Of a DNA stretch of 64,000 nucleotides, positions 5,131 to 30,120 are shown in pieces. Position 1 is the stretch's first letter. Each line of letters starts with the position of its first letter. Origin of the DNA: an uncultured Candidatus Saccharibacteria bacterium (lineage in GTDB: Bacteria > Patescibacteriota > Minisyncoccia > Phycocordibacterales > UBA918); NCBI GenBank assembly GCA_964353135.1, contig CAYGTV010000001.1, positions 216,217 to 280,216 of the forward strand, written 5' to 3'. The position numbers were made by a program, and so were the translations under genes. Below the pieces are notes generated by a model. It saw only the letters and a list, made by a program, of their open reading frames with translations. It was not told the origin of the DNA and ran no database searches.

Positions 5131-5171
5131 ACAACAAACCCGCTTGAAAGAGCGGGTTTGTTGTTATTTTT
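5131..5171 (+). terminator. rho-independent terminator (AAACCCGCT-TGAAAG-AGCGGGTTT + T-run)
   Basis: Perfect 9-bp GC-rich stem followed by GTTGTTATTTTT downstream of SLT-domain gene. Confidence 0.75.
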
Positions 5172-5224
5172 GAGAAACGTTGTATTGTTTGAGTAGATTG
5201 TAACAGAAGAACCTGGAGGACAAA

Positions 5225-5554
5225 ATGATTCCAATAACGAAAATATGGTTGATGCAACAAGCAGAAGGGTTAGCCTGGTATCAGGCTCTCAATCAGCTTG
5301 AGATACCATATCTTAAATGGCATGGACATAGTGGAAAAATACCCGCGGCGGTTCGCGATGAAGTTGAGAATCGAACACACGGGTTTGCGTGTGGATATGA
5401 GTTGCTTGAAGAGCGAAACCTTATGAATCCGTGGCGAATCGCTCACGACGGCATCAGCTACATCGTAGCTGAGCTATATGGTTACTCTCCGAAAGCGCAT
5501 GAGGCAGAAGGTTTTTTAATTTTTCCTCTCGGAGTCATCGACATCGATGCGTAG
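5225..5554 (+). CDS. hypothetical protein
   Basis: 109 aa ORF with GGAGG Shine-Dalgarno 7 nt upstream of ATG; no recognisable motif. Confidence 0.5.
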   Translation: MIPITKIWLMQQAEGLAWYQALNQLEIPYLKWHGHSGKIPAAVRDEVENRTHGFACGYELLEERNLMNPWRIAHDGISYIVAELYGYSPKAHEAEGFLIFPLGVIDIDA

Positions 5555-5614
5555 ATATAAATCGACTTGTCAATTTGACAGGTCGTTTTCTCTTGCTTTT
5601 GTTATACTTACAAC

Positions 5615-6082
5615 ATGAAATACTGGCTAATGAAATCTGAACCGGATTGTTACTCGATTGATGATCTGAAAAAAGACAAAGTTGAACACTGGGATGGTAC
5701 CCGGAATTATCAGGTGCGCAATATGATGCGTGATGATATGACAGTGGGGGACTTAGCAATTTTTTATCATAGTAACGCTGGTAAGGAGACTGGCTGTGTG
5801 GGAGTGATGAAAGTACACAGTAAAGCCTACCCAGACCCAACTCAGTTTGACCCAAAATCAGATCACCCAGACCCAAAAAGTGATCCTGAAAACCCGCGCT
5901 GGTTATGTGTTGATATGAAGTATGTGTCGCACTTACCGCGCCTGGTGTCACTCCAGGAAATCAAGCTCGATCCTAAATTTACTGATATGCCTTTGGTGCA
6001 GCGAGGGAACCGACTGTCAGTTTTTCCCATCAAAAAAGTCCACTTTGATCGAATTGTTAAGTTGGCAAAAGAAGAGCAATAA
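5615..6082 (+). CDS. EVE (PUA-like) domain protein
   Basis: MKYWLMKSEP...Y...RNYQVRN...GD...FYHS pattern characteristic of EVE domain. Confidence 0.8.
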   Translation: MKYWLMKSEPDCYSIDDLKKDKVEHWDGTRNYQVRNMMRDDMTVGDLAIFYHSNAGKETGCVGVMKVHSKAYPDPTQFDPKSDHPDPKSDPENPRWLCVDMKYVSHLPRLVSLQEIKLDPKFTDMPLVQRGNRLSVFPIKKVHFDRIVKLAKEEQ

Positions 6083-6146
6083 GCAGTGCTAGTTTATGCC
6101 CGCCATTGTCAGTGTCGGCCATTGTACGTTGTTATACTGAACTTAT

Positions 6147-7352
6147 ATGGAATCTACGATCAACTCGCTGCGCGACACCAAGGGACGCTTTCAGAAAAAA
6201 GATACTGGCTTTATGCAGTTGTTTATCAGCAAACGGTTGATCCACGGAGCAGCCGCTGCACTGGCGGGGATTTTTGTCCCGATCTTTCTCTACGAAACCA
6301 CTGGTGAATCATTTTTTGTAGTTGGGGGGTACTATGCATTCCTCTCATTGATGTACGCACTATTGCTGGTACCAAGCATGTCGATTACTAATCACCTAGG
6401 GTTTAGTAAGACGCTTGTTTTGTCCGGGGTCTGTAGCATCATTACCTACATATTCCTGTTCTTGCTGACGCCAGAAAACATCCTAACGCTGATGTGGCCA
6501 CTGGCAGCTGCAATTATAGCTTTTAGATTATTTCACTGGGTACCTTTTCATACCGACTTTGCCTTGTTCACAACAGCCGGGAAGCGAGGCAAGCAGGTAA
6601 GTTTGTCATTTGCAGCCATCGCGTTTATGGGGGCAATCGGACCGATTGCTGCTGGTTTTATTGTCGCCAACGCGGGGTACACAGCGCTATTTGGAACTAT
6701 CATTGTTCTCTTGATCGCAGCCACTATTTCTTATGCCTACGTTCCTGAAACTCCAACGCATTTTGACTGGTCTTGGAAAGAAACCTGGCGGCAATTTAAA
6801 TACAAGAAAAATAGGGGATTAATGGTGGGGGAGTTTGCCAACGGAGCAGAGACAATTGTAAACATTATCGTTTGGCCAATTTTCCTGTACGAGATTCTCA
6901 ACGGCGATTTGTTTAGCATCGGGGCACTGTCTACAATTATTGTTGGGGTAACGATTATCCTGCAACTAATCCTTGGTCGCTATTTGGATAAGCAGGGCAA
7001 GGATAAAACTAAAACCTTGCGGGTGGGAAGCTTCCTCTATGCAATTGGCTGGATCCTTAAAATTTTTGTTTTGTCCGCTGCGCAAGTATTTTTCGTTGGT
7101 CTGTATCACAACATCGTACGGATTTTCTCGCACACTCCGTTTAGCGCGATTATTTACGACATGTCAGCTGACCAGGGGAGTCTGGTTGATGAATATACTG
7201 TGATCAGAGAAATGGCCAATCATCTCGGCCGAGCGTCTGCTTTGCTCGTCACAGCTATCCTGACGCTATTTATCCCAATAGGGTGGACATTCTTTATTGC
7301 CGTTGGTGCATCACTGGCCCTTAATATGGTCTATACGGCACAAAGGCGGTAG
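6147..7352 (+). CDS. polytopic membrane transporter, MFS-like
   Basis: 401 aa, about 12 predicted hydrophobic helices, two-halves organisation. Confidence 0.55.
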   Translation: MESTINSLRDTKGRFQKKDTGFMQLFISKRLIHGAAAALAGIFVPIFLYETTGESFFVVGGYYAFLSLMYALLLVPSMSITNHLGFSKTLVLSGVCSIITYIFLFLLTPENILTLMWPLAAAIIAFRLFHWVPFHTDFALFTTAGKRGKQVSLSFAAIAFMGAIGPIAAGFIVANAGYTALFGTIIVLLIAATISYAYVPETPTHFDWSWKETWRQFKYKKNRGLMVGEFANGAETIVNIIVWPIFLYEILNGDLFSIGALSTIIVGVTIILQLILGRYLDKQGKDKTKTLRVGSFLYAIGWILKIFVLSAAQVFFVGLYHNIVRIFSHTPFSAIIYDMSADQGSLVDEYTVIREMANHLGRASALLVTAILTLFIPIGWTFFIAVGASLALNMVYTAQRR

Positions 7353-22090: not shown

Positions 22091-23497
22091 TTATTTTGCT
22101 TCTGCATTTCCAGGTTTTTGAACTGAAAGTCCAAGTTCAATCAATTGCTCAATCTCCAATGGCTTTGGTGCATTCATAACAGCTGTCTGCCCCTTTCGGG
22201 TCATTGGAAATGCCTGCACTTCTCGGAGCGATTCTTCACCGGTAAGATTCATAACGTTTCTCTCTACTCCTAGTGCAATTCCTCCATGAGGTGGAGTGCC
22301 GTATTTGAACGCTTCTAGCATGTGACCTACTTTGTCTTGGATTTCTTCGTCTGTGTTCCCCATGACTTTATAGACAGCTTCTATAATTTCTGGTTTATGT
22401 GAACGGATGCTTCCTCCTCCGGCTTCAAATCCGTTGCAAACTAGGTCGTATTGAGTAGTAAGAATGTTCTCAATATTTTCTCCCTTCATTAAATCTTCAA
22501 TGAACTCAGCTTTTGGCATTGAGAATGGATTGTGAGTAAAGGTCCAACCTCCTTCGTTTGTTTTCTCGAAGAACGGAAAATCAATCACCCATGCATATGC
22601 AAGTACACCATTTTCTTTGTCTTCTTCTGTTCTTAGGTCGAATTTATCTGCTCCATATTTTTCCATTGATTCAGCATAAGTAACCCGTGGAAATGGTTTC
22701 TGTTTAATTGTGTATCCCATATCTTCAACCGTCGTAGTAATCATTTCTTCAATGATATTCATTACGTCTGTCTGCTCAACAAAGGACATTTCGACGTCAA
22801 TTTGAGTATGTTCGTATCCTCGGTCAGCCCGCAAGTCTTCGTCTCTAATAGCTCGAGCGATTTGTACGTAACGTTCAAATCCGGCATTCATTAGCAATTG
22901 CTTGTATTGCTGTGGTGATTGCGGTAGAGCATAAAATTTCCCTGGGTTATGTCGACTTGGTACCACGAAGTCACGTGAACCCTCAGGTGTCGATTCAGTC
23001 AAAAGTGGTGTTTCAATTTCACAGAAGTCTCGATCCATGAGGAAGTCTCTACACTTCTTTACAAACTCACTTCGAACGCGCATGTTTCTTTGCATTCGCT
23101 CGGTACGTAAGTCGAGAGATCGATGTTTGAGTCTTACTTCCTCATCCTTTCCTAATGAGTCTTCTGTAAGATCAAATGGCGCTGTAGCAGCTTCGTTTAA
23201 GATTGTAATTCCAGTGATTTCTAGTTCAATGTCTCCGTTAATAACCCCTTCCTTGATAGCCTTTTCTGGCCGCGCATTTACCATACCTGTCATTGCTACT
23301 ACATACTCGGCTTTGAGTGTCTTTGCTACTTCAAGTACATCAGGTTTGCCAAAGACTACCCCCTGCACTTTTCCGCTTCGGTCTCGAATATCACAAAATA
23401 CCATCTTACTCTGGTCTCGCGTGACGTGAATCCACCCATTGATGGTGACTTCTTTTCCTTTGTGTGCACTTAGTTCTGCAATTAGTGTTCGTTCCAT
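22091..23497 (-). CDS. aspS: aspartate--tRNA ligase (short form lacking GAD insertion domain)
   Basis: Class II motif 2 region QIARAIRDEDLRADRGYEHTQIDVEMSF matches AspRS FRDEDLRADRQPEFTQID; N-terminal OB fold; 468 aa. Confidence 0.9.
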   Translation of the reverse strand: MERTLIAELSAHKGKEVTINGWIHVTRDQSKMVFCDIRDRSGKVQGVVFGKPDVLEVAKTLKAEYVVAMTGMVNARPEKAIKEGVINGDIELEITGITILNEAATAPFDLTEDSLGKDEEVRLKHRSLDLRTERMQRNMRVRSEFVKKCRDFLMDRDFCEIETPLLTESTPEGSRDFVVPSRHNPGKFYALPQSPQQYKQLLMNAGFERYVQIARAIRDEDLRADRGYEHTQIDVEMSFVEQTDVMNIIEEMITTTVEDMGYTIKQKPFPRVTYAESMEKYGADKFDLRTEEDKENGVLAYAWVIDFPFFEKTNEGGWTFTHNPFSMPKAEFIEDLMKGENIENILTTQYDLVCNGFEAGGGSIRSHKPEIIEAVYKVMGNTDEEIQDKVGHMLEAFKYGTPPHGGIALGVERNVMNLTGEESLREVQAFPMTRKGQTAVMNAPKPLEIEQLIELGLSVQKPGNAEAK

Positions 23498-24639: not shown

Positions 24640-26322
24640 TTACATTGCAAGTGGTAAGGTAAGAGTAAACCGAGATCCTTTCCCTGGGCCTTCTGAGTGG
24701 GCAGTGATGCTTCCTCCCATCGCTTCGGCCATCTTTTGCGCCACAAATAGTCCCAGCCCCGATCCTGATTTGTTTATATCATTAGCACCATCAGCCCGAC
24801 TAAATTTCTGGAAAAGTATGTCAATCGTTTCTTTTGACATACCTATTCCGGTATCGATAATGTCAACCGAGATAGTCTTGCTTTTCAAGTCGTCTCGCAT
24901 AAATACAGTAACCGTTCCTTTTGGTGTGTATTTTATCGAATTATTGATTAGGTTGTGAGCAATTTGAATTGTTTTACCGACGTCTGCACTAACAATCGCC
25001 TTACTCTGTAAGTCGGTTCTAAATAGCAGCATCAGCCCTTGTTTGATTGCAGTTGGTCTGATGTCGTCAGTTACACCTTCGATCTCGTGTCTAAGATTGA
25101 AATCAGACACCTCGTACTTCATGTTTCCAGACTCAATTCGAGAAACGTTGAGGTAATCCTCGACTACTAGAGCCATATTTTTTGCCGAAGATTCTATTCG
25201 TTCGATTGGTTCTTTGGCTTTGTCTGGGATCGGACCAAAGCTCCCCTCAGATAACATAGAAGCGTATCCACGAATCGAGGTGAGTGGGCTCCGTAATTGA
25301 TGTGAAGCAATCGACACAAACTCCGACTTCTGTTTATCAAGCGCCTTGAGGCGGACGTTAGCTTTTTCTAAATCAGTTGCAAGTTTCTCGATTCTCTCTC
25401 TTTGTTTGATTTCATTTCTAACACTACGAATAAGTAATACTCCTAGTATTATTGTGATTATCAAGGTTGCCAAAGCTATGGCTTGAACATTTTCAAGTTT
25501 TCTAACAAACAAGAGAGATGCAATAAGAACACCTAGCCCGGTGACCAAGGCTTCTGTTGCCATGATTTTTGCTTTGAACATTTGATAACGAACCATCAAA
25601 TATGTGATAAAGGCTACAAATATCGGCATACCAAAGAGGCCGTACTGACCTAGTTCCCAGTTTGTTTCAAAACTTCCAAGAATATTTCCTACCGAAAATG
25701 AAAATAAAAACGCTAGCATACCAGCTGTTGCGAGTGAAAATTCAATCCGTCGGCTTTTATTTTTAATTTTTCTTATTTCCTTGACTGCAAAAGTCAAAAT
25801 ACCTAGTGCAATGATAATCTCCGCGTAATACACGTATGATTGCCAGAGTGGTCCTTCGAGTGCTTCTCTCCAGCAGTTGGTAAAATCAAAACCTAACAAA
25901 TTGAGTGATGTGTGGGTAAACAAGAACGCAGGAACAAAAATTAGAAAAATAGCTAGCTCGCTTCTCCATGAAGGCCATCTGTTAGTGATTAGTGTATGTA
26001 TGAAATAGTAGGAAGCAACATAGATCAATAGCTCGAAGTGAATCAAGATTGACCAAAAGAACATAATCAAATCAGATCGTTCCGACGCCCATAGTACAAG
26101 GTCAATGAGACTCCAGGCGGTGAATGCTAATGCTAAGAAAAGTAAAGCGATTGAGGTTTTTGCTCTAGGATTATGGAAAAAGACAAACAAAGCAATCAGT
26201 AGGATCGAAAGCGACGGAAACAGATGTGAGTAGTAAATAAAGTTACCCCAAATATTCTCTGAGAAAATCAGGTATGGTGCAGGTTCCCAGAGGCAAATTG
26301 TTGGATCAGCAATATTTCCCAT
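24640..26322 (-). CDS. sensor histidine kinase with N-terminal polytopic membrane sensor domain
   Basis: H-box SHQLRSPLTSI, N-box NLINNSIKYT, G1 DTGIGM, G2 GSGLGL; ~8 N-terminal TM segments; no cognate response regulator nearby. Confidence 0.85.
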   Translation of the reverse strand: MGNIADPTICLWEPAPYLIFSENIWGNFIYYSHLFPSLSILLIALFVFFHNPRAKTSIALLFLALAFTAWSLIDLVLWASERSDLIMFFWSILIHFELLIYVASYYFIHTLITNRWPSWRSELAIFLIFVPAFLFTHTSLNLLGFDFTNCWREALEGPLWQSYVYYAEIIIALGILTFAVKEIRKIKNKSRRIEFSLATAGMLAFLFSFSVGNILGSFETNWELGQYGLFGMPIFVAFITYLMVRYQMFKAKIMATEALVTGLGVLIASLLFVRKLENVQAIALATLIITIILGVLLIRSVRNEIKQRERIEKLATDLEKANVRLKALDKQKSEFVSIASHQLRSPLTSIRGYASMLSEGSFGPIPDKAKEPIERIESSAKNMALVVEDYLNVSRIESGNMKYEVSDFNLRHEIEGVTDDIRPTAIKQGLMLLFRTDLQSKAIVSADVGKTIQIAHNLINNSIKYTPKGTVTVFMRDDLKSKTISVDIIDTGIGMSKETIDILFQKFSRADGANDINKSGSGLGLFVAQKMAEAMGGSITAHSEGPGKGSRFTLTLPLAM

Positions 26323-26324
26323 GT

Positions 26325-26501
26325 TTATTCAGCAAAAAGTTCTTCGAAATAATCCTCAGTTTCAGGGCCGTCAGGGTTTGTAAAGATCACGTAGTCTTGC
26401 TGTACAACTTTGACATAATAAGTGACCGCAATCGAGAATGCGATCATCGATAGCGTGATGACTCTTATGAGTAGTGCAAAATTAAACGGTTTCTTTAACA
26501 T
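26325..26501 (-). CDS. small single-TM protein (about 58 aa), hypothetical; not in supplied ORF track
   Basis: ATG at 26501 preceded by TATACT; ORF MLKKPFNFALLIRVITLSMIAFSIAV... ends 2 nt before kinase start. Confidence 0.35.
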   Translation of the reverse strand: MLKKPFNFALLIRVITLSMIAFSIAVTYYVKVVQQDYVIFTNPDGPETEDYFEELFAE

Positions 26502-26567
26502 GAACTATCTCTAGTATAGCCGGTCATCTCTCTGCTGAGTCTTACTAATATCGTTTTTGTGTATAAC

Positions 26568-27053
26568 TTATGATAAACAGTCAATCTCGTACACTCTTTG
26601 GAAATTCTTGGGTATGTTTGCTCTGTTTTTATTAAATTCAACTTTGCTTAGGGTAAAAATTGGACCAATGGTCTTTCTGCAGTTACGCGCTCCACAATGA
26701 CACCGACCCGGTAAAACCCAGTCCTTATCAGCTTCGGTAAAAGAGTAGTCCATTAGGAGCTCTTCGTTTGGTTGTATGTCTCTGATAGCGATGACTTTTC
26801 GTTTCGTCACAATAGCCACATTTGGATTGCATGAGTGGTTGATGTATTTAAATTTTGATTTTTTAGTATCAATCCAAGTATATCTTCCTGCTCCAATCCA
26901 ATCTAAACTTTGTTTTGCTAAAACAGTCGAGAATTTTTTTACTACTTTTAGAGGGCCATGAACATAGTCGACGGTTTCGTTGGCTTGGATTAGTTCGGCT
27001 GTATGTAGACCGTCTCCGTTAATTTTGCTTTTACGCACGTATAGTTGTTTCAT
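26568..27053 (-). CDS. SET-domain protein (putative protein lysine methyltransferase) with post-SET Cys cluster
   Basis: NHSCNPN, ELLMDYSF and CHCGARNC motifs. Confidence 0.85.
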   Translation of the reverse strand: MKQLYVRKSKINGDGLHTAELIQANETVDYVHGPLKVVKKFSTVLAKQSLDWIGAGRYTWIDTKKSKFKYINHSCNPNVAIVTKRKVIAIRDIQPNEELLMDYSFTEADKDWVLPGRCHCGARNCRKTIGPIFTLSKVEFNKNRANIPKNFQRVYEIDCLS

Positions 27054-27708
27054 ATGTTGTCATTTTTCGTAGGGCCAGTATACCAACAAGTCCATGCATT
27101 AGTGCATTTGAGACTGGATAAAACATGAGCGGGTGCCAAAACGCGCCATGAGTAGCAAACGTTACACCAGCTAGAATCGCATAAGCAGCAGCCCATATAG
27201 TCCATGGGAACCAATGTTCTTTTTCAGGGTTTTTCCATGTTGAGTGTAGTAAAGGATAGAATGATGGAAACGTTGAGAGGTTTGATAAAAACAAGAACCC
27301 CAGCACTGCCCATTCCCGATATTCTGGTGTGAGAAAGGCTGCACCGGCAAGTATCCAGGCTCCTATGTAAGCAATGGTGATAGCTATGTCACCCAAGAAA
27401 GACACTTTGTCCCAAAAATCCTCTGGCCACCAATCCTCTGGCCACCATTTATGGGGATTAATCAGACGAGCTTTTTTCCAACAACGATAGGAAACGTACA
27501 CGGCTAGTGTTCCGCATACAGTCGGGAGTATTAGTTCTGCAAACGTAGCGTTAGCATCCCATTCAAGCACCGCTAGAATCAAGGTGCCATACGCAAACAT
27601 AAACCACGTAACTGGCTCTGGGTCGATGTCTTCGTTTCTTATGTAAAAGATGTAGCCGATGAGCTGAAGTACTCCAGCTATAATCCCGGCAAGTAGTATT
27701 AAAGACAT
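27031..27708 (-). CDS. polytopic membrane protein, hypothetical (contains WWPEDWWPEDFW repeat)
   Basis: 225 aa, about 6 hydrophobic helices. Confidence 0.5.
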   Translation of the reverse strand: MSLILLAGIIAGVLQLIGYIFYIRNEDIDPEPVTWFMFAYGTLILAVLEWDANATFAELILPTVCGTLAVYVSYRCWKKARLINPHKWWPEDWWPEDFWDKVSFLGDIAITIAYIGAWILAGAAFLTPEYREWAVLGFLFLSNLSTFPSFYPLLHSTWKNPEKEHWFPWTIWAAAYAILAGVTFATHGAFWHPLMFYPVSNALMHGLVGILALRKMTTYETTIRA

Positions 27709-27777
27709 ATCAGATCAAAAGTAGACTCATACTACCAGAAACTTGTTTAAAAATAACGTTTCTAGTGTTCCTACTGT

Positions 27778-28983
27778 TCACATCTCGAGCGGCAACACCA
27801 GAGTAAAACGTGATCCCTTTCCTATCCCCTCTGAGTGAGCACTGATGTTCCCTCCCATAGCTACAGCAAGTTTCTGAGCCAGACATAAACGCAGATTATC
27901 TCCACAGACTTTTGATCCAGCATCGAGAGTTGAGTCTTTTTTGAAGGTAGTCTTGATTTGGTCAGATGAGATCCCTTTTCCGGTGTCGATCACGTCTACA
28001 TATACTTTTTTTGTTTTGAGGTCATCACGCACAAAGGCAGTGATGGTACCACGTGGGGTATTTTCCTCTGCCTGGGTAATGAGGATGCGCAGGATTTGAT
28101 GCACTTTGGTTCTATCAGCGTTGATAATAGTTTGGCTTGTGAGGTTTGTTCTGAGCAATAGGATGAGACCTTTTTTTAAAATTGCCGGACGTAGTTCGTC
28201 ACAGATAGTTTCGACTGTATCCCGCAGGTTGAGGTCGGTCAGACTGAGGTCCATGTGACCAGCCTCGAGCTTGGTTAGGTCTAGATGAGTTTCGATTGTT
28301 CTGGCCATCGCTTTGGCAGAGTCATTGATTTTGAGCAAGGCGTTTCGACTTTGTTCAGCATTTGCATCAGTATTTGATTCAAGAAGTGATTCAATCTGTA
28401 CTCGGAGGTTTGTCAGTGGCGTTCGTAACTGTTTAATGGTTCCTGCCAGGTCAGAGCTATGTTTCTGATTTTTCTTGAGCAGTTTAGCAGACGTCTGAGC
28501 GGCATTGTTGACACTGTCGTTGGCACGATGTTGATGATATCGGACACCGTGTACCAATAGATGGATACAGCACAGTGCTGCAGCTGCAATGATTCCCATC
28601 ATGTACCACGAAAGATAGGTGAAGAAATTACTAGTGGCACACGCCCCGATCGCTCCATTGATACTCTGGCTGCTCGGTAACACGAGCAAAACTGGGACAC
28701 TTGCCAAGTAGACAAGCCACACCAGCACTCGTTTGTAGGCTTCAACCGGTTGCAGTTGGTGATACGTAGCTGACAACGCACCCAAGCTGGCGGCAATTGC
28801 CAGAATCCACAGTCCTATGGTCAACATCACATCCACACTGCTGGTATAGAGATAGCAAAAATTGTTGGTGCTAGTTGGGTCAGCAGTAACATTGAAAATC
28901 AATATAGCAACAGTTAAGATCGCTAAAACCGCAAAGCAAATGCTCCGCGTCTGTTCGAGTGGACTGGCCAAGTTACGCCCCAT
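27778..28983 (-). CDS. histidine-kinase-like membrane protein, catalytically degenerate (pseudo-kinase paralog of 24640..26322)
   Basis: C-terminus similar to upstream kinase (GGNISAHSEGIGKGSRFTLVLP) but H-box reads IKQLRTPL (His->Lys), N-box Asn lost (ILITQAEENT), G2 box NLRL. Confidence 0.75.
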   Translation of the reverse strand: MGRNLASPLEQTRSICFAVLAILTVAILIFNVTADPTSTNNFCYLYTSSVDVMLTIGLWILAIAASLGALSATYHQLQPVEAYKRVLVWLVYLASVPVLLVLPSSQSINGAIGACATSNFFTYLSWYMMGIIAAAALCCIHLLVHGVRYHQHRANDSVNNAAQTSAKLLKKNQKHSSDLAGTIKQLRTPLTNLRVQIESLLESNTDANAEQSRNALLKINDSAKAMARTIETHLDLTKLEAGHMDLSLTDLNLRDTVETICDELRPAILKKGLILLLRTNLTSQTIINADRTKVHQILRILITQAEENTPRGTITAFVRDDLKTKKVYVDVIDTGKGISSDQIKTTFKKDSTLDAGSKVCGDNLRLCLAQKLAVAMGGNISAHSEGIGKGSRFTLVLPLEM

Positions 28984-29043
28984 ATGTAGTACCAGTATAT
29001 CAAGCGGCCGGTTCTTTTTATGTAGTTATTACGCTAGCAATCC

Positions 29044-29547
29044 TTACAGGAGAAAGAGAATAACCAACGGAGCCATCAGCCACCAAAAGAAAGAACTTTC
29101 CGCTCCAAATGCTGTCTGTAGTGGGGTGCCTGGTGTAAGGAATTCTGTTACCGGCAATACGTGGAAAGAAAATGCCATGACAAGTACACTGGCTGAGCCA
29201 GCTAGTAAAAATTTCTTGAAAAAGCTTTCAAATTTTTTCTCCTTGAATTCATCAGGCATGATCCGGTAACACAGCCAGGTCATCAAAATGGTGAATGTTG
29301 CAAAGATAGTCAGCTTGCCAAATGATTGAGCTAGTCCACTACCAAGGTTTTCGGTCAAGTACGCTGTGTAAGGAAATTCGATCAAGATCAATAGTGCCAG
29401 GTATAGTCCGACGATTACGTTTATCATGGCTTGTCGTCCTTTAAAGGTTGCCCAAATCATGAATAACATAAAGACAGCCAAGAGATACGAGATCTCGAAC
29501 ATAAAGTCTAAAACAAAGCCCCAGTCCATAGCTTGATTATAATCCAA
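29044..29547 (-). CDS. membrane protein, hypothetical
   Basis: 167 aa, 5 hydrophobic segments. Confidence 0.5.
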   Translation of the reverse strand: MDYNQAMDWGFVLDFMFEISYLLAVFMLFMIWATFKGRQAMINVIVGLYLALLILIEFPYTAYLTENLGSGLAQSFGKLTIFATFTILMTWLCYRIMPDEFKEKKFESFFKKFLLAGSASVLVMAFSFHVLPVTEFLTPGTPLQTAFGAESSFFWWLMAPLVILFLL

Positions 29548-29598: not shown

Positions 29599-29627
29599 TT
29601 GACATTTTTAATAATGTATACATAATA
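29599..29627 (+). promoter_or_regulatory. sigma70-type promoter TTGACA-17-ATAATA
   Basis: Consensus -35, AT-rich -10 upstream of ORF 29656 with GGAG RBS. Confidence 0.5.
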
Positions 29628-29655: not shown

Positions 29656-30120
29656 ATGAGTACATTAGTAAATAAGACAGAGGTACGCATCTTGCAAAGC
29701 GTCATGATGATGTCAGTTGTCGTATTCTGTATATTTGTGTGGTGGGCTTCCATGCAGCTGGTGGGTAGCTATTTTGGAGGGTTCTATATTCTAGATTCAT
29801 ACCAAGGCTGGTATGCCGCGGTGTGGCTCGCCGGATACGGATTTATAATTCCCCTGATGATTCTGAAAGAATACGGTTTCAGTTTCGAAAAAATGGAAAT
29901 AGATGATGACGGCGAGTTTGCGAACTCGCCGTCTTTTTATATCTGCTCGATTGCGTACTTGGTTGCATCCTGTATATGCTTGAATCGGTCGCCCATCAGT
30001 TTTACTCCACCAAACCAACGGGTGACGCAGATAATGCAGTCACTCACCTGCTCCTTTTGCATGACTCGGAGGATGACCATTCCAGCACCAGTCTCGCCGT
30101 CGTCGGCTTTGGTTTCATAA
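29656..30120 (+). CDS. small membrane protein, hypothetical; 3' third of called ORF doubtful
   Basis: Good RBS (AAGGAGCAAAGAA-ATG), N-terminal TM helices; ORF reads through a strong + strand terminator at 29908-29940 and overlaps convergent yigZ by ~180 nt. Confidence 0.3.
   Translation: MSTLVNKTEVRILQSVMMMSVVVFCIFVWWASMQLVGSYFGGFYILDSYQGWYAAVWLAGYGFIIPLMILKEYGFSFEKMEIDDDGEFANSPSFYICSIAYLVASCICLNRSPISFTPPNQRVTQIMQSLTCSFCMTRRMTIPAPVSPSSALVS
29908..29940 (+). terminator. rho-independent terminator (GACGGCGAG-loop-CTCGCCGTC + TTTTTAT)
   Basis: 9-bp perfect GC-rich stem plus T-run; also abuts yigZ stop codon. Confidence 0.7.

Follow-up and report, generated by a model that had tools for sequence, protein, structure and literature searches.

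A SET-domain protein, a small membrane protein and the sensor half of an orphan histidine kinase form an exchangeable cassette in Patescibacteria

What does a eukaryote-type SET-domain gene do among the sensor-kinase genes of a bacterium of the candidate phyla radiation (CPR, Patescibacteria)? The question is raised by a gene cluster at positions 24640-29547 of the window analyzed here, a 64-kb stretch of contig CAYGTV010000001.1 from an uncultured Candidatus Saccharibacteria bacterium. An initial annotation, made from the sequence letters, described six co-oriented minus-strand open reading frames (ORFs) at this place, with a SET-domain protein lying between two histidine-kinase-like proteins (HK1 and HK2 hereafter). 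All six ORFs are found on that strand and at those coordinates, apart from one start codon considered below (Table 1). These genes are also carried by a 380-kb NCBI contig and a Logan contig, and relatives bear the label Patescibacteria/CPR. Comparison with related loci indicates that the invariant core is SET, then a small transmembrane (TM) protein, then an HK1-type orphan sensor kinase, and that this core is a Patescibacteria-specific membrane signalling module. Within it, SET, the small peptide and the sensor domain of HK1 form one co-diversifying, exchangeable cassette of ~1.63 kb between conserved anchors.

A conserved core with a mosaic cassette

Related loci were collected from both ends of the arrangement. 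Starting from the SET protein, an HK1-type kinase was found after SET in 10 of 10 independent CPR loci. Starting from the PQ-loop protein encoded ahead of SET (mem225), SET lay directly downstream in 27 of 28 informative metagenome loci, L112 being the only one that departs, and an HK1-type kinase was present in 20 of 20. Altogether, each of the 32 informative CPR loci other than the window has an HK1-type kinase after SET, and the proximity of SET to a kinase, which the initial annotation had suggested looking for in relatives, is therefore kept there. The gaps between the PQ-loop gene and SET, measured by tblastn, were −19 to +193 nucleotides (nt) in 25 loci, with longer distances of ~1.0 kb in L113 and ~1.5 kb in L101 where genes are inserted. 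Adjacency of SET and kinase is retained in L010 and L012 despite wholly different flanking genes. A divergent subtype, represented by L128 and L132, consists of SET, a small Cys-rich protein of 101-123 aa (of the two copies, only that of L128 shows an evident TM helix) and an HK1-type kinase 47-52% identical to the window HK1; its SET belongs to a different subfamily, and an EamA transporter replaces the PQ-loop protein.

None of ~75 other SET loci, of generic bacterial or archaeal type, had a kinase nearby, and a general association of SET genes with two-component genes was rejected on this ground. A REC domain lay within 1.5 kb in 6 of these ~75 loci, ~2 times the background density, which we judged not significant; generic SET genes of ~130 aa located 140-570 nt from a REC response-regulator gene were seen in L016, L023 and L064 (Acidobacteriota) and in L047 and L057 (Bacteroidota). 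The absence of a REC domain near the two kinases, noted at the outset, extends to the whole 64-kb window in a six-frame profile search with filters off, and likewise to 10 module loci and a further 317 kb of related loci (~50 related loci in all). The same profile gave 17 REC matches in unrelated control loci. Within the data covered, HK1 and HK2 are orphan kinases.

The SET protein matches PF00856 with 44 bits against a cutoff of 22.4 (3e-11), covers the full profile (1-105) and aligns end to end with MLL-type SET plus post-SET regions (MLL3/4). The GxG motif, NHSCxPN, the DYS tyrosine (ELxxDY) and the CxCx4C post-SET cluster are invariant in 33 SET orthologs, and both this invariance and the profile score bear out the original assignment of a SET domain with catalytic and post-SET motifs. 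Because the catalytic motifs are invariant, the enzyme is likely active. The family comprises ~33 orthologs of ~160 aa each with a conserved C-terminal tail of ~30 aa. Close orthologs were confined to CPR metagenome-assembled genomes (MAGs) in the search from the SET side, and the protein represents a distinct CPR subfamily of prokaryotic SET methyltransferases. One of its matches is the structure of BurB (PDB 9l4t), a SET-fold enzyme with a small-molecule substrate. The main review of bacterial SET proteins describes effectors from Legionella, Chlamydia, Bacillus and Burkholderia, together with bacterial and archaeal SETs methylating chromatin-like proteins, and makes no mention of kinases, two-component systems or operons (PMC3980110). 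A literature search found no paper connecting SET domains with histidine kinases or with Patescibacteria.

The kinase at the other end of the core, HK1, matches HisKA (9e-17) and HATPase_c (1e-24) in Pfam with its H, N, G1, F and G2 boxes intact, in agreement with its first description as a bona fide sensor kinase. The residue after the H-box His is Q, as in 29 of the 138 nearest histidine kinases; inactivity of HK1 owing to this H-Q pair was considered and rejected, given that the trait is clade-wide. The sensor domain has ~9 TM helices with the N-terminus outside, acidic and aromatic external loops and two invariant external Cys residues, C10 and C150, and its loop segment 181-192 is KEIRKIKNKSRR. 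With moderate confidence, it is modelled as a polytopic, 7TM-receptor-like domain.

The 58-aa TM peptide predicted in the initial annotation is a genuine gene, conserved in ~28 loci and separated from HK1 by 2 nt. One TM helix is followed by the motif YYxKVxxKDYxIFTNPDGPDTSDYF, and the tails fall into distinct types, FTNPDGPDTSDYF versus KNFKxFT..EPxPxDxYLH. Because the peptide is fused in frame to the kinase N-terminus in two lineages (L008 and L009), it is assigned to the HK1 sensor, either as its split-off first helix and extracellular tail or as a co-sensor. Scans that included divergent orthologs returned no Pfam or NCBIfam family for the peptide, the HK1 sensor domain, mem225 or the first membrane protein of the cluster (mem161).

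Identity to the window proteins showed that SET and the HK1 sensor diverge jointly and independently of the flanks. Residues 1-300 of HK1 are 20-50% identical to L087, L092 and L093; at residue 301 the identity jumps to 70-93% and then stays mostly above 60% through the core, and identity to L005 is uniformly 70-97%. At the nucleotide level, identity to L087 is mostly 73-89% in mem225 (59-89% over all bins), 30-59% from ~27040 to ~25510, and 66-78% from ~25420 onward. The mosaic boundaries are thus sharp and lie at window positions ~27050, the mem225/SET junction, and ~25420, at HK1 residue ~300. Mantel permutation on all-against-all distance matrices from 22 loci gave the same partition. SET correlated with the sensor (ρ 0.81), the peptide with the sensor (ρ 0.86), the peptide with SET (ρ 0.77) and the HK1 core with mem225 (ρ 0.63), each with p 0.0005, while SET with the HK1 core (ρ 0.17), SET with mem225 (0.09), the sensor with the core (0.22) and the peptide with mem225 (0.05) were not significant. 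The HK1 core and the flanking genes follow genome phylogeny. Co-variation thus couples SET with the half of HK1 that receives input and not with the output half; the initial annotation had named a methylation-based output as one possibility.

One rival reading is that SET has no functional link to the kinase and is instead a protein methyltransferase with a housekeeping role, acting for example on a protein of the nucleoid or ribosome, that hitch-hikes with a fast-evolving sensor in a conserved slot. The slot of these streamlined genomes, running from DnaK-DnaJ to the tryptophanyl- and aspartyl-tRNA synthetases (TrpRS-AspRS), is syntenic across many relatives, SET is lost in L112 with the kinase kept, SETs acting on chromatin-like proteins have precedents in bacteria and archaea (PMC3980110), and contiguity alone can yield correlated divergence. 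However, the adjacency of SET and kinase outlasts complete loss of flank synteny in L010 and L012 as well as replacement of both the SET subfamily and the transporter family, no kinase is near SET in the ~75 other loci, and upstream the mosaic breaks exactly where mem225 meets SET rather than between SET and peptide. We consider a mere hitch-hiker quite unlikely.

The accessory pseudokinase and the gene layout

HK2 had been labelled a histidine-kinase-like protein and, tentatively, a sensor pseudokinase; the second label stands, but "kinase-like" understates its catalytic degeneracy. Its Pfam matches are HisKA at 3.8e-7 (partial) and HATPase_c at 6e-13, and its paralogy with HK1 is confined to the cytoplasmic halves, which share 40% identity over 265 aa (E 1e-58). 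Lys184 stands where the phospho-acceptor His would be, and none of the N, F and G2 boxes is kept: SHQLRSPL has become IKQLRTPL, HNLINNSIKYT has become RILITQAEENT, and GSGLGL has become GDNLRL. An exhaustive and a word-indexed search yielded 16 orthologs with 45-100% identity and a mean column identity of 67% in their alignment. The His is absent in all 16 (K in 14, R in one, L in one) and so are the N and G2 boxes, the rest being strongly conserved, whereas the sister proteins P0165 and P0167 share the 4-TM N-terminus and have intact catalytic motifs. Because conserved orthologs share the degenerate motifs while their sisters remain intact, HK2 is a maintained pseudokinase under purifying selection that comes from a separate kinase family, one with a distinct 4-TM N-terminus. 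It cannot accept phosphate on His, and ATP binding is probably absent. The conserved orthologs, the separate N-terminal domain and the intact sisters also led us to reject HK2 as a recent, decaying duplicate of HK1. The Lys at the His position as the target of SET was rejected as a primary idea, given R or L in two orthologs, SET modules that mostly lack HK2, and HK2 occurring without SET.

HK2 is missing from most module loci. In the window and in L130 it is placed between mem161 and the PQ-loop gene, and in L128 it lies downstream of HK1; in these three loci it adjoins an HK1-type kinase. By contrast, the slot in L127 and L129 contains only mem161, HK2 and TrpRS, with no SET, PQ-loop gene or HK1, and in L131 the mem161-TrpRS slot is occupied by an intact HK2-type kinase. 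In nearly all loci a mem161 ortholog precedes either the module or an HK2-type kinase; mem161 is the constant first gene of the slot. The mem161-TrpRS slot therefore holds the SET/HK1 module, an HK2-type (pseudo)kinase, or both. Because HK2 is absent from most module loci and present without SET and HK1 in L127 and L129, it is a lineage-restricted accessory outside the conserved core, and the location of SET between two sensor kinases, which had drawn attention to the cluster, is not characteristic of it.

Table 1. Features of the gene cluster in the 64-kb window
Feature	Position	Strand	Basis or remark
mem161, ~4-TM membrane protein, 161 aa	29044..29529	-	ORF and Logan gene call; precedes either kinase type
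HK2, membrane pseudo-histidine-kinase, 4-TM N-terminus and degenerate dimerization/phosphotransfer (DHp) and catalytic (CA) domains	27778..28983	-	Pfam, motif alignment
mem225, 7-TM PQ-loop/SWEET-fold protein with WWPEDWWPED loop	27031..27708	-	overlaps SET by 23 nt
SET-domain methyltransferase, 161 aa, cytoplasmic, post-SET Cys cluster, C-terminal tail	26568..27053	-	PF00856
58-aa single-TM peptide, acidic extracytoplasmic tail	26325..26501	-	conserved in ~28 loci
HK1, whole gene	24640..26322	-	HisKA and HATPase_c
HK1 sensor domain, residues 1-300, ~9 TM helices	25423..26322	-	
HK1 DHp and catalytic half (HisKA and HATPase_c)	24640..25422	-	H, N, G1, F and G2 boxes intact
Variable cassette of ~1.63 kb: SET, peptide and HK1 sensor domain	25422..27053	-	identity profiles, Mantel tests

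Successive genes of the cluster are separated by 60, 69, −23, 66 and 2 nt. The negative value is the overlap of the WWPED-protein gene with SET at 27031-27053, pointed out in the initial annotation; it is genuine, and overlaps of 4-19 nt (tblastn) are also seen repeatedly in orthologous loci. The first membrane gene, given there as 29044..29547, exists, but its start is more likely ATG 29529 than TTG 29547: the 161-aa product is that of the Logan gene call for the contig, and most orthologs are 159-165 aa long. A TATAAT box lies 6 nt upstream of this ATG, and the mRNA may be leaderless. The intergenic gaps contain no convincing intrinsic terminator, and a scan for promoter and terminator consensus sequences was not enriched over shuffles and so gives no proof of an operon; co-transcription of the six genes is plausible.

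Several further features were recorded around the cluster. The GC content of the window is uniform at 41-48%, with a slight dip to 41-42% across the cluster, and the 64 kb contained no tRNA gene in a tRNA scan and no Rfam family at gathering threshold. For TrpRS, ATG 24451 (316 aa) is the probable start, not 24490. The window AspRS (22091-23497) is 35-38% identical to the AspRS at the same position in most relatives (L002-L132) and 53-57% identical to that of L006, L010, L012 and L112, and two AspRS types appear to substitute for one another in this syntenic slot. On the plus strand, an ORF of 154 aa at 29656-30120, whose first half is membrane-spanning in appearance, shares 184 nt with the 3' end of the Impact/YigZ gene on the minus strand. 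It is preceded by a sigma-70-like promoter match (11/12) at 29599-29626 and contains, immediately past the Impact stop codon, a strong GC-rich hairpin of 11 bp at 29908-29933.

Transporters, polyamine genes and a proposed role

The WWPED protein, mem225, is a 7-TM transporter of PQ-loop/SWEET fold (3+1+3), with its WWPEDWWPED loop between TM3 and TM4 predicted to be cytoplasmic. None of 7 family members matched Pfam PQ-loop or MtN3_slv, even at E <= 1. A transporter gene, of PQ-loop/SWEET fold in the window and of the EamA family in other lineages, stands immediately 5' of SET, and the two are often translationally coupled. The SET-linked copy often has tandem PQ-loop/SWEET-fold paralogs (260-295 aa) immediately upstream, as in L009 (727-2145), L098, L099, L101, L105, L113 and L120. 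In L132, a stand-alone gene for an LPG_synthase_C domain (resembling the C-domain of MprF) and an EamA transporter precede SET (5143-6981); the EamA gene ahead of SET in L128 (2228-3220) lies on the opposite strand.

Genes for polyamine biosynthesis occur in or next to the module in 11 of ~50 loci and represent three non-homologous routes, namely AdoMet decarboxylase (AdoMetDC) with SpeE, 1,9-bis(guanidino)-5-aza-nonane synthase with agmatinase, and a Sacchrp_dh protein of homospermidine-synthase size. L008 encodes an AdoMet decarboxylase, an agmatinase and a DHS-family 1,9-bis(guanidino)-5-aza-nonane synthase (NCBIfam 566 bits against a cutoff of 500), whereas L098 and L101 carry AdoMetDC and/or spermidine synthase together with DUF2617. 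Sacchrp_dh was seen in eight loci and measures 471-477 aa where complete (L002, L006 and L112). Because polyamine genes recur in the module, its input or output may concern cationic amines or envelope charge, which we regard as a lead. DUF2617 lies beside spermidine synthase in two differently arranged loci (L098:7509-8021 and L101:6939-7529), suggesting a polyamine-related role for this domain. Outside CPR, a Methanosarcinales MAG combines CN_hydrolase, SET, GNAT and AdoMet decarboxylase genes (L014:3478-6403), and a Gammaproteobacteria MAG has an operon of Orn/Arg decarboxylase, DHS and agmatinase divergent from a 355-aa double-SET protein (L015:5860-10966); the two neighbourhoods hint at a wider link between SET and polyamines.

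One explanation built on these neighbours is that SET N-methylates a small molecule or lipid amine (a polyamine, lysine or a lysyl-lipid-type amine), that the transporter moves the product and that HK1 senses it, the module being a transporter-enzyme-sensor set for homeostasis of a cationic amine or of envelope charge. This would account for a transporter gene directly 5' of SET, coupled to it in translation and displaced between lineages from PQ-loop to EamA or the reverse, for three non-homologous polyamine routes inside the module with a homospermidine-synthase-sized Sacchrp_dh in the SET slot of L112, for the LPG_synthase_C-domain gene of L132, and for the acidic and aromatic external loops of the HK1 sensor. 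A SET fold with a small-molecule substrate also has an example in BurB, which is among the matches. However, nearly all characterised SET enzymes are protein-lysine methyltransferases and the SET protein is closest to MLL-type SET plus post-SET, the polyamine genes are limited to those 11 loci and are not in the window, and several of the Sacchrp_dh cases may stem from a single ancestral event. Amine methylation appears unlikely.

The reading that we prefer, to which we assign a probability of roughly 0.4 as a joint claim, is that SET, in the cytoplasm, has the variable sensing unit as its target or its partner and thereby tunes the input of HK1. SET would most likely methylate a lysine, either in the 58-aa peptide or in the sensor's K-rich cytoplasmic loops, possibly while docked at the cytoplasmic WWPED loop of the transporter, and its action would set or tune what HK1 perceives. 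HK1 would then autophosphorylate and signal to a distal response regulator encoded elsewhere. HK2 would most likely serve as a scaffold or modulator of the real kinase or of mem161, in the manner of RetS, DivL, RocA and FasC.

Several observations weigh against this proposal. The co-variation could arise without functional coupling, given that SET, peptide and sensor are contiguous and that recombination tracts anchored in the nearest conserved sequence could carry them together by hitch-hiking. L112 lacks SET, with a 477-aa Sacchrp_dh gene in its place, yet the other module genes persist. The 58-aa peptide has no Lys that is invariant, the model of the HK1 sensor is only of moderate confidence, and polyamine genes are absent from the 64-kb window. 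The promoter and terminator scan, not enriched over shuffles, lends co-transcription no support. Finally, HK2 occurs with neither HK1 nor SET nearby (L127 and L129), and HK1 need not take part in its role.

CPR bacteria often live as episymbionts, and SET might be a secreted effector that methylates host proteins like the nucleomodulins of pathogens, with the kinase only regulating it. Bacterial SET effectors are reviewed from the four genera named above (PMC3980110). By contrast, no signal peptide or secretion motif is visible in the SET protein, most hosts of CPR bacteria are prokaryotes that lack histones, and the co-variation with the HK1 sensor domain would be left unexplained, which makes an effector highly improbable.

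Comparison with known systems

The cassette most closely recalls loci in which an enzyme, a peptide and a receptor kinase vary together. In agrB-agrD-agrC the pattern of a variable N-terminal and a conserved cytoplasmic kinase region is the same as in comQ-comX-comP, and the cassette types described here could likewise be specificity groups of a pherotype-type communication. SET would methylate a lysine of the peptide, and the peptide or a fragment, exposed or released via the PQ-loop/EamA transporter, would be read by the cognate HK1 sensor. The order of enzyme, ~55-aa peptide and polytopic histidine kinase is that of comQXP (PMC4008528). As in ComQXPA of Bacillus (PMC4008528, PMC4408185) and AgrBDCA of Staphylococcus, a co-oriented modifying enzyme, a ~50-aa peptide and the N-terminal sensor of a polytopic membrane histidine kinase are polymorphic and co-varying, while the cytoplasmic kinase domain is conserved, which is also how the N-terminal and cytoplasmic domains of ComP compare (PMC4008528). 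Gene overlaps are common in both cases, the peptide tails fall into distinct types, and the transporter adjoins the enzyme.

There are also differences. The enzyme is a SET methyltransferase, not an isoprenyl transferase or a peptidase, the kinase is of HisKA and not of HisKA_3/HPK10 type, a transporter gene precedes the enzyme, and no response regulator is adjacent, unlike comA and agrA. The peptide has a true, strongly hydrophobic TM helix, which, with its kinase fusion in L008 and L009, fits a sensor subunit better than a diffusible signal, and its counterpart in L128 and L132 is the larger Cys-rich protein with a TM helix evident only in L128. Neither a processing protease nor a leader motif was found, and the variation observed lies between metagenomic lineages. 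We therefore regard a released or exposed peptide signal as rather unlikely. In a broader and still speculative form, CPR bacteria would carry a hitherto unrecognised class of specificity-group ("pherotype"-like) cassette in which SET is the signal-modifying enzyme acting on the peptide or on a transporter-handled amine, the 7TM-type HK1 sensor reads the mark, and cassettes are swapped between lineages to change the recognition of kin, host or cationic amines; this is doubtful. An enzyme, a peptide and a sensor swapped as a unit are a hallmark of communication-specificity loci, and, if the pattern holds, the cassette would bring a new phylum-level group, and lysine or amine methylation, under the same principle.

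Pseudokinase modulators of kinases are known (PMC8498467, PMC12675982, PMC9491836). Like the pseudo-histidine-kinases of RetS-GacS, DivL, RocA-CovS, FasB-FasC and ChrS, HK2 keeps the DHp/CA fold but has lost the phospho-acceptor His together with the N and G2 boxes, and its gene neighbours that of a genuine paralogous kinase; its best PDB sequence matches include DivL and RetS. It differs in that its orthologs also occur without a neighbouring kinase, in that His is replaced by Lys and not by Tyr as in DivL, and in that its partner may be mem161 rather than HK1; the likeness is one of sequence and gene context.

The remaining parts also have relatives. Chlamydia cpnSET, Methanosarcina Gö1-SET, Legionella RomA/LegAS4 and Burkholderia BurB share with the SET protein a minimal SET plus post-SET architecture with all catalytic motifs, whereas the ~30-aa C-terminal tail and the obligatory link to a sensor kinase and a transporter set it apart. 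Most bacterial PQ-loop/SWEET members are 3-TM SemiSWEETs. Unlike the PQ-loop/SWEET (TOG) transporters cystinosin, PQLC2/Ypq1 and the SWEETs, mem225 is bacterial, has a full-length 7-TM form and a unique WWPEDWWPED loop, and is without a Pfam PQ-loop or MtN3 match. In the Pseudomonas aeruginosa PA4773-4775-pmrAB operon and in transporter and accessory co-sensing kinases, a kinase is co-encoded with a transporter and small membrane accessory proteins. The PA4773-4775-pmrAB operon resembles our loci in that polyamine synthesis genes share the neighbourhood of a sensor kinase; those systems include a response regulator and no methyltransferase, and the link proposed here comes from gene neighbourhoods.

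Each component belongs to a known superfamily, and a SET enzyme that is obligatorily paired with a kinase sensor domain and diversifies along with it appears to be undescribed. The comparison also defines a conserved His-to-Lys pseudokinase family and a bacterial 7-TM PQ-loop/SWEET-fold family, and flags a repeated polyamine link. Almost nothing is known of signal perception in CPR bacteria, where the module represents a signalling system. Bacterial SETs have been discussed almost only as host-directed enzymes acting as histone mimics; here, in over 30 genomes, SET is genetically tied to the input half of a bacterial sensor kinase, giving prokaryotic SET domains a concrete and testable endogenous role.

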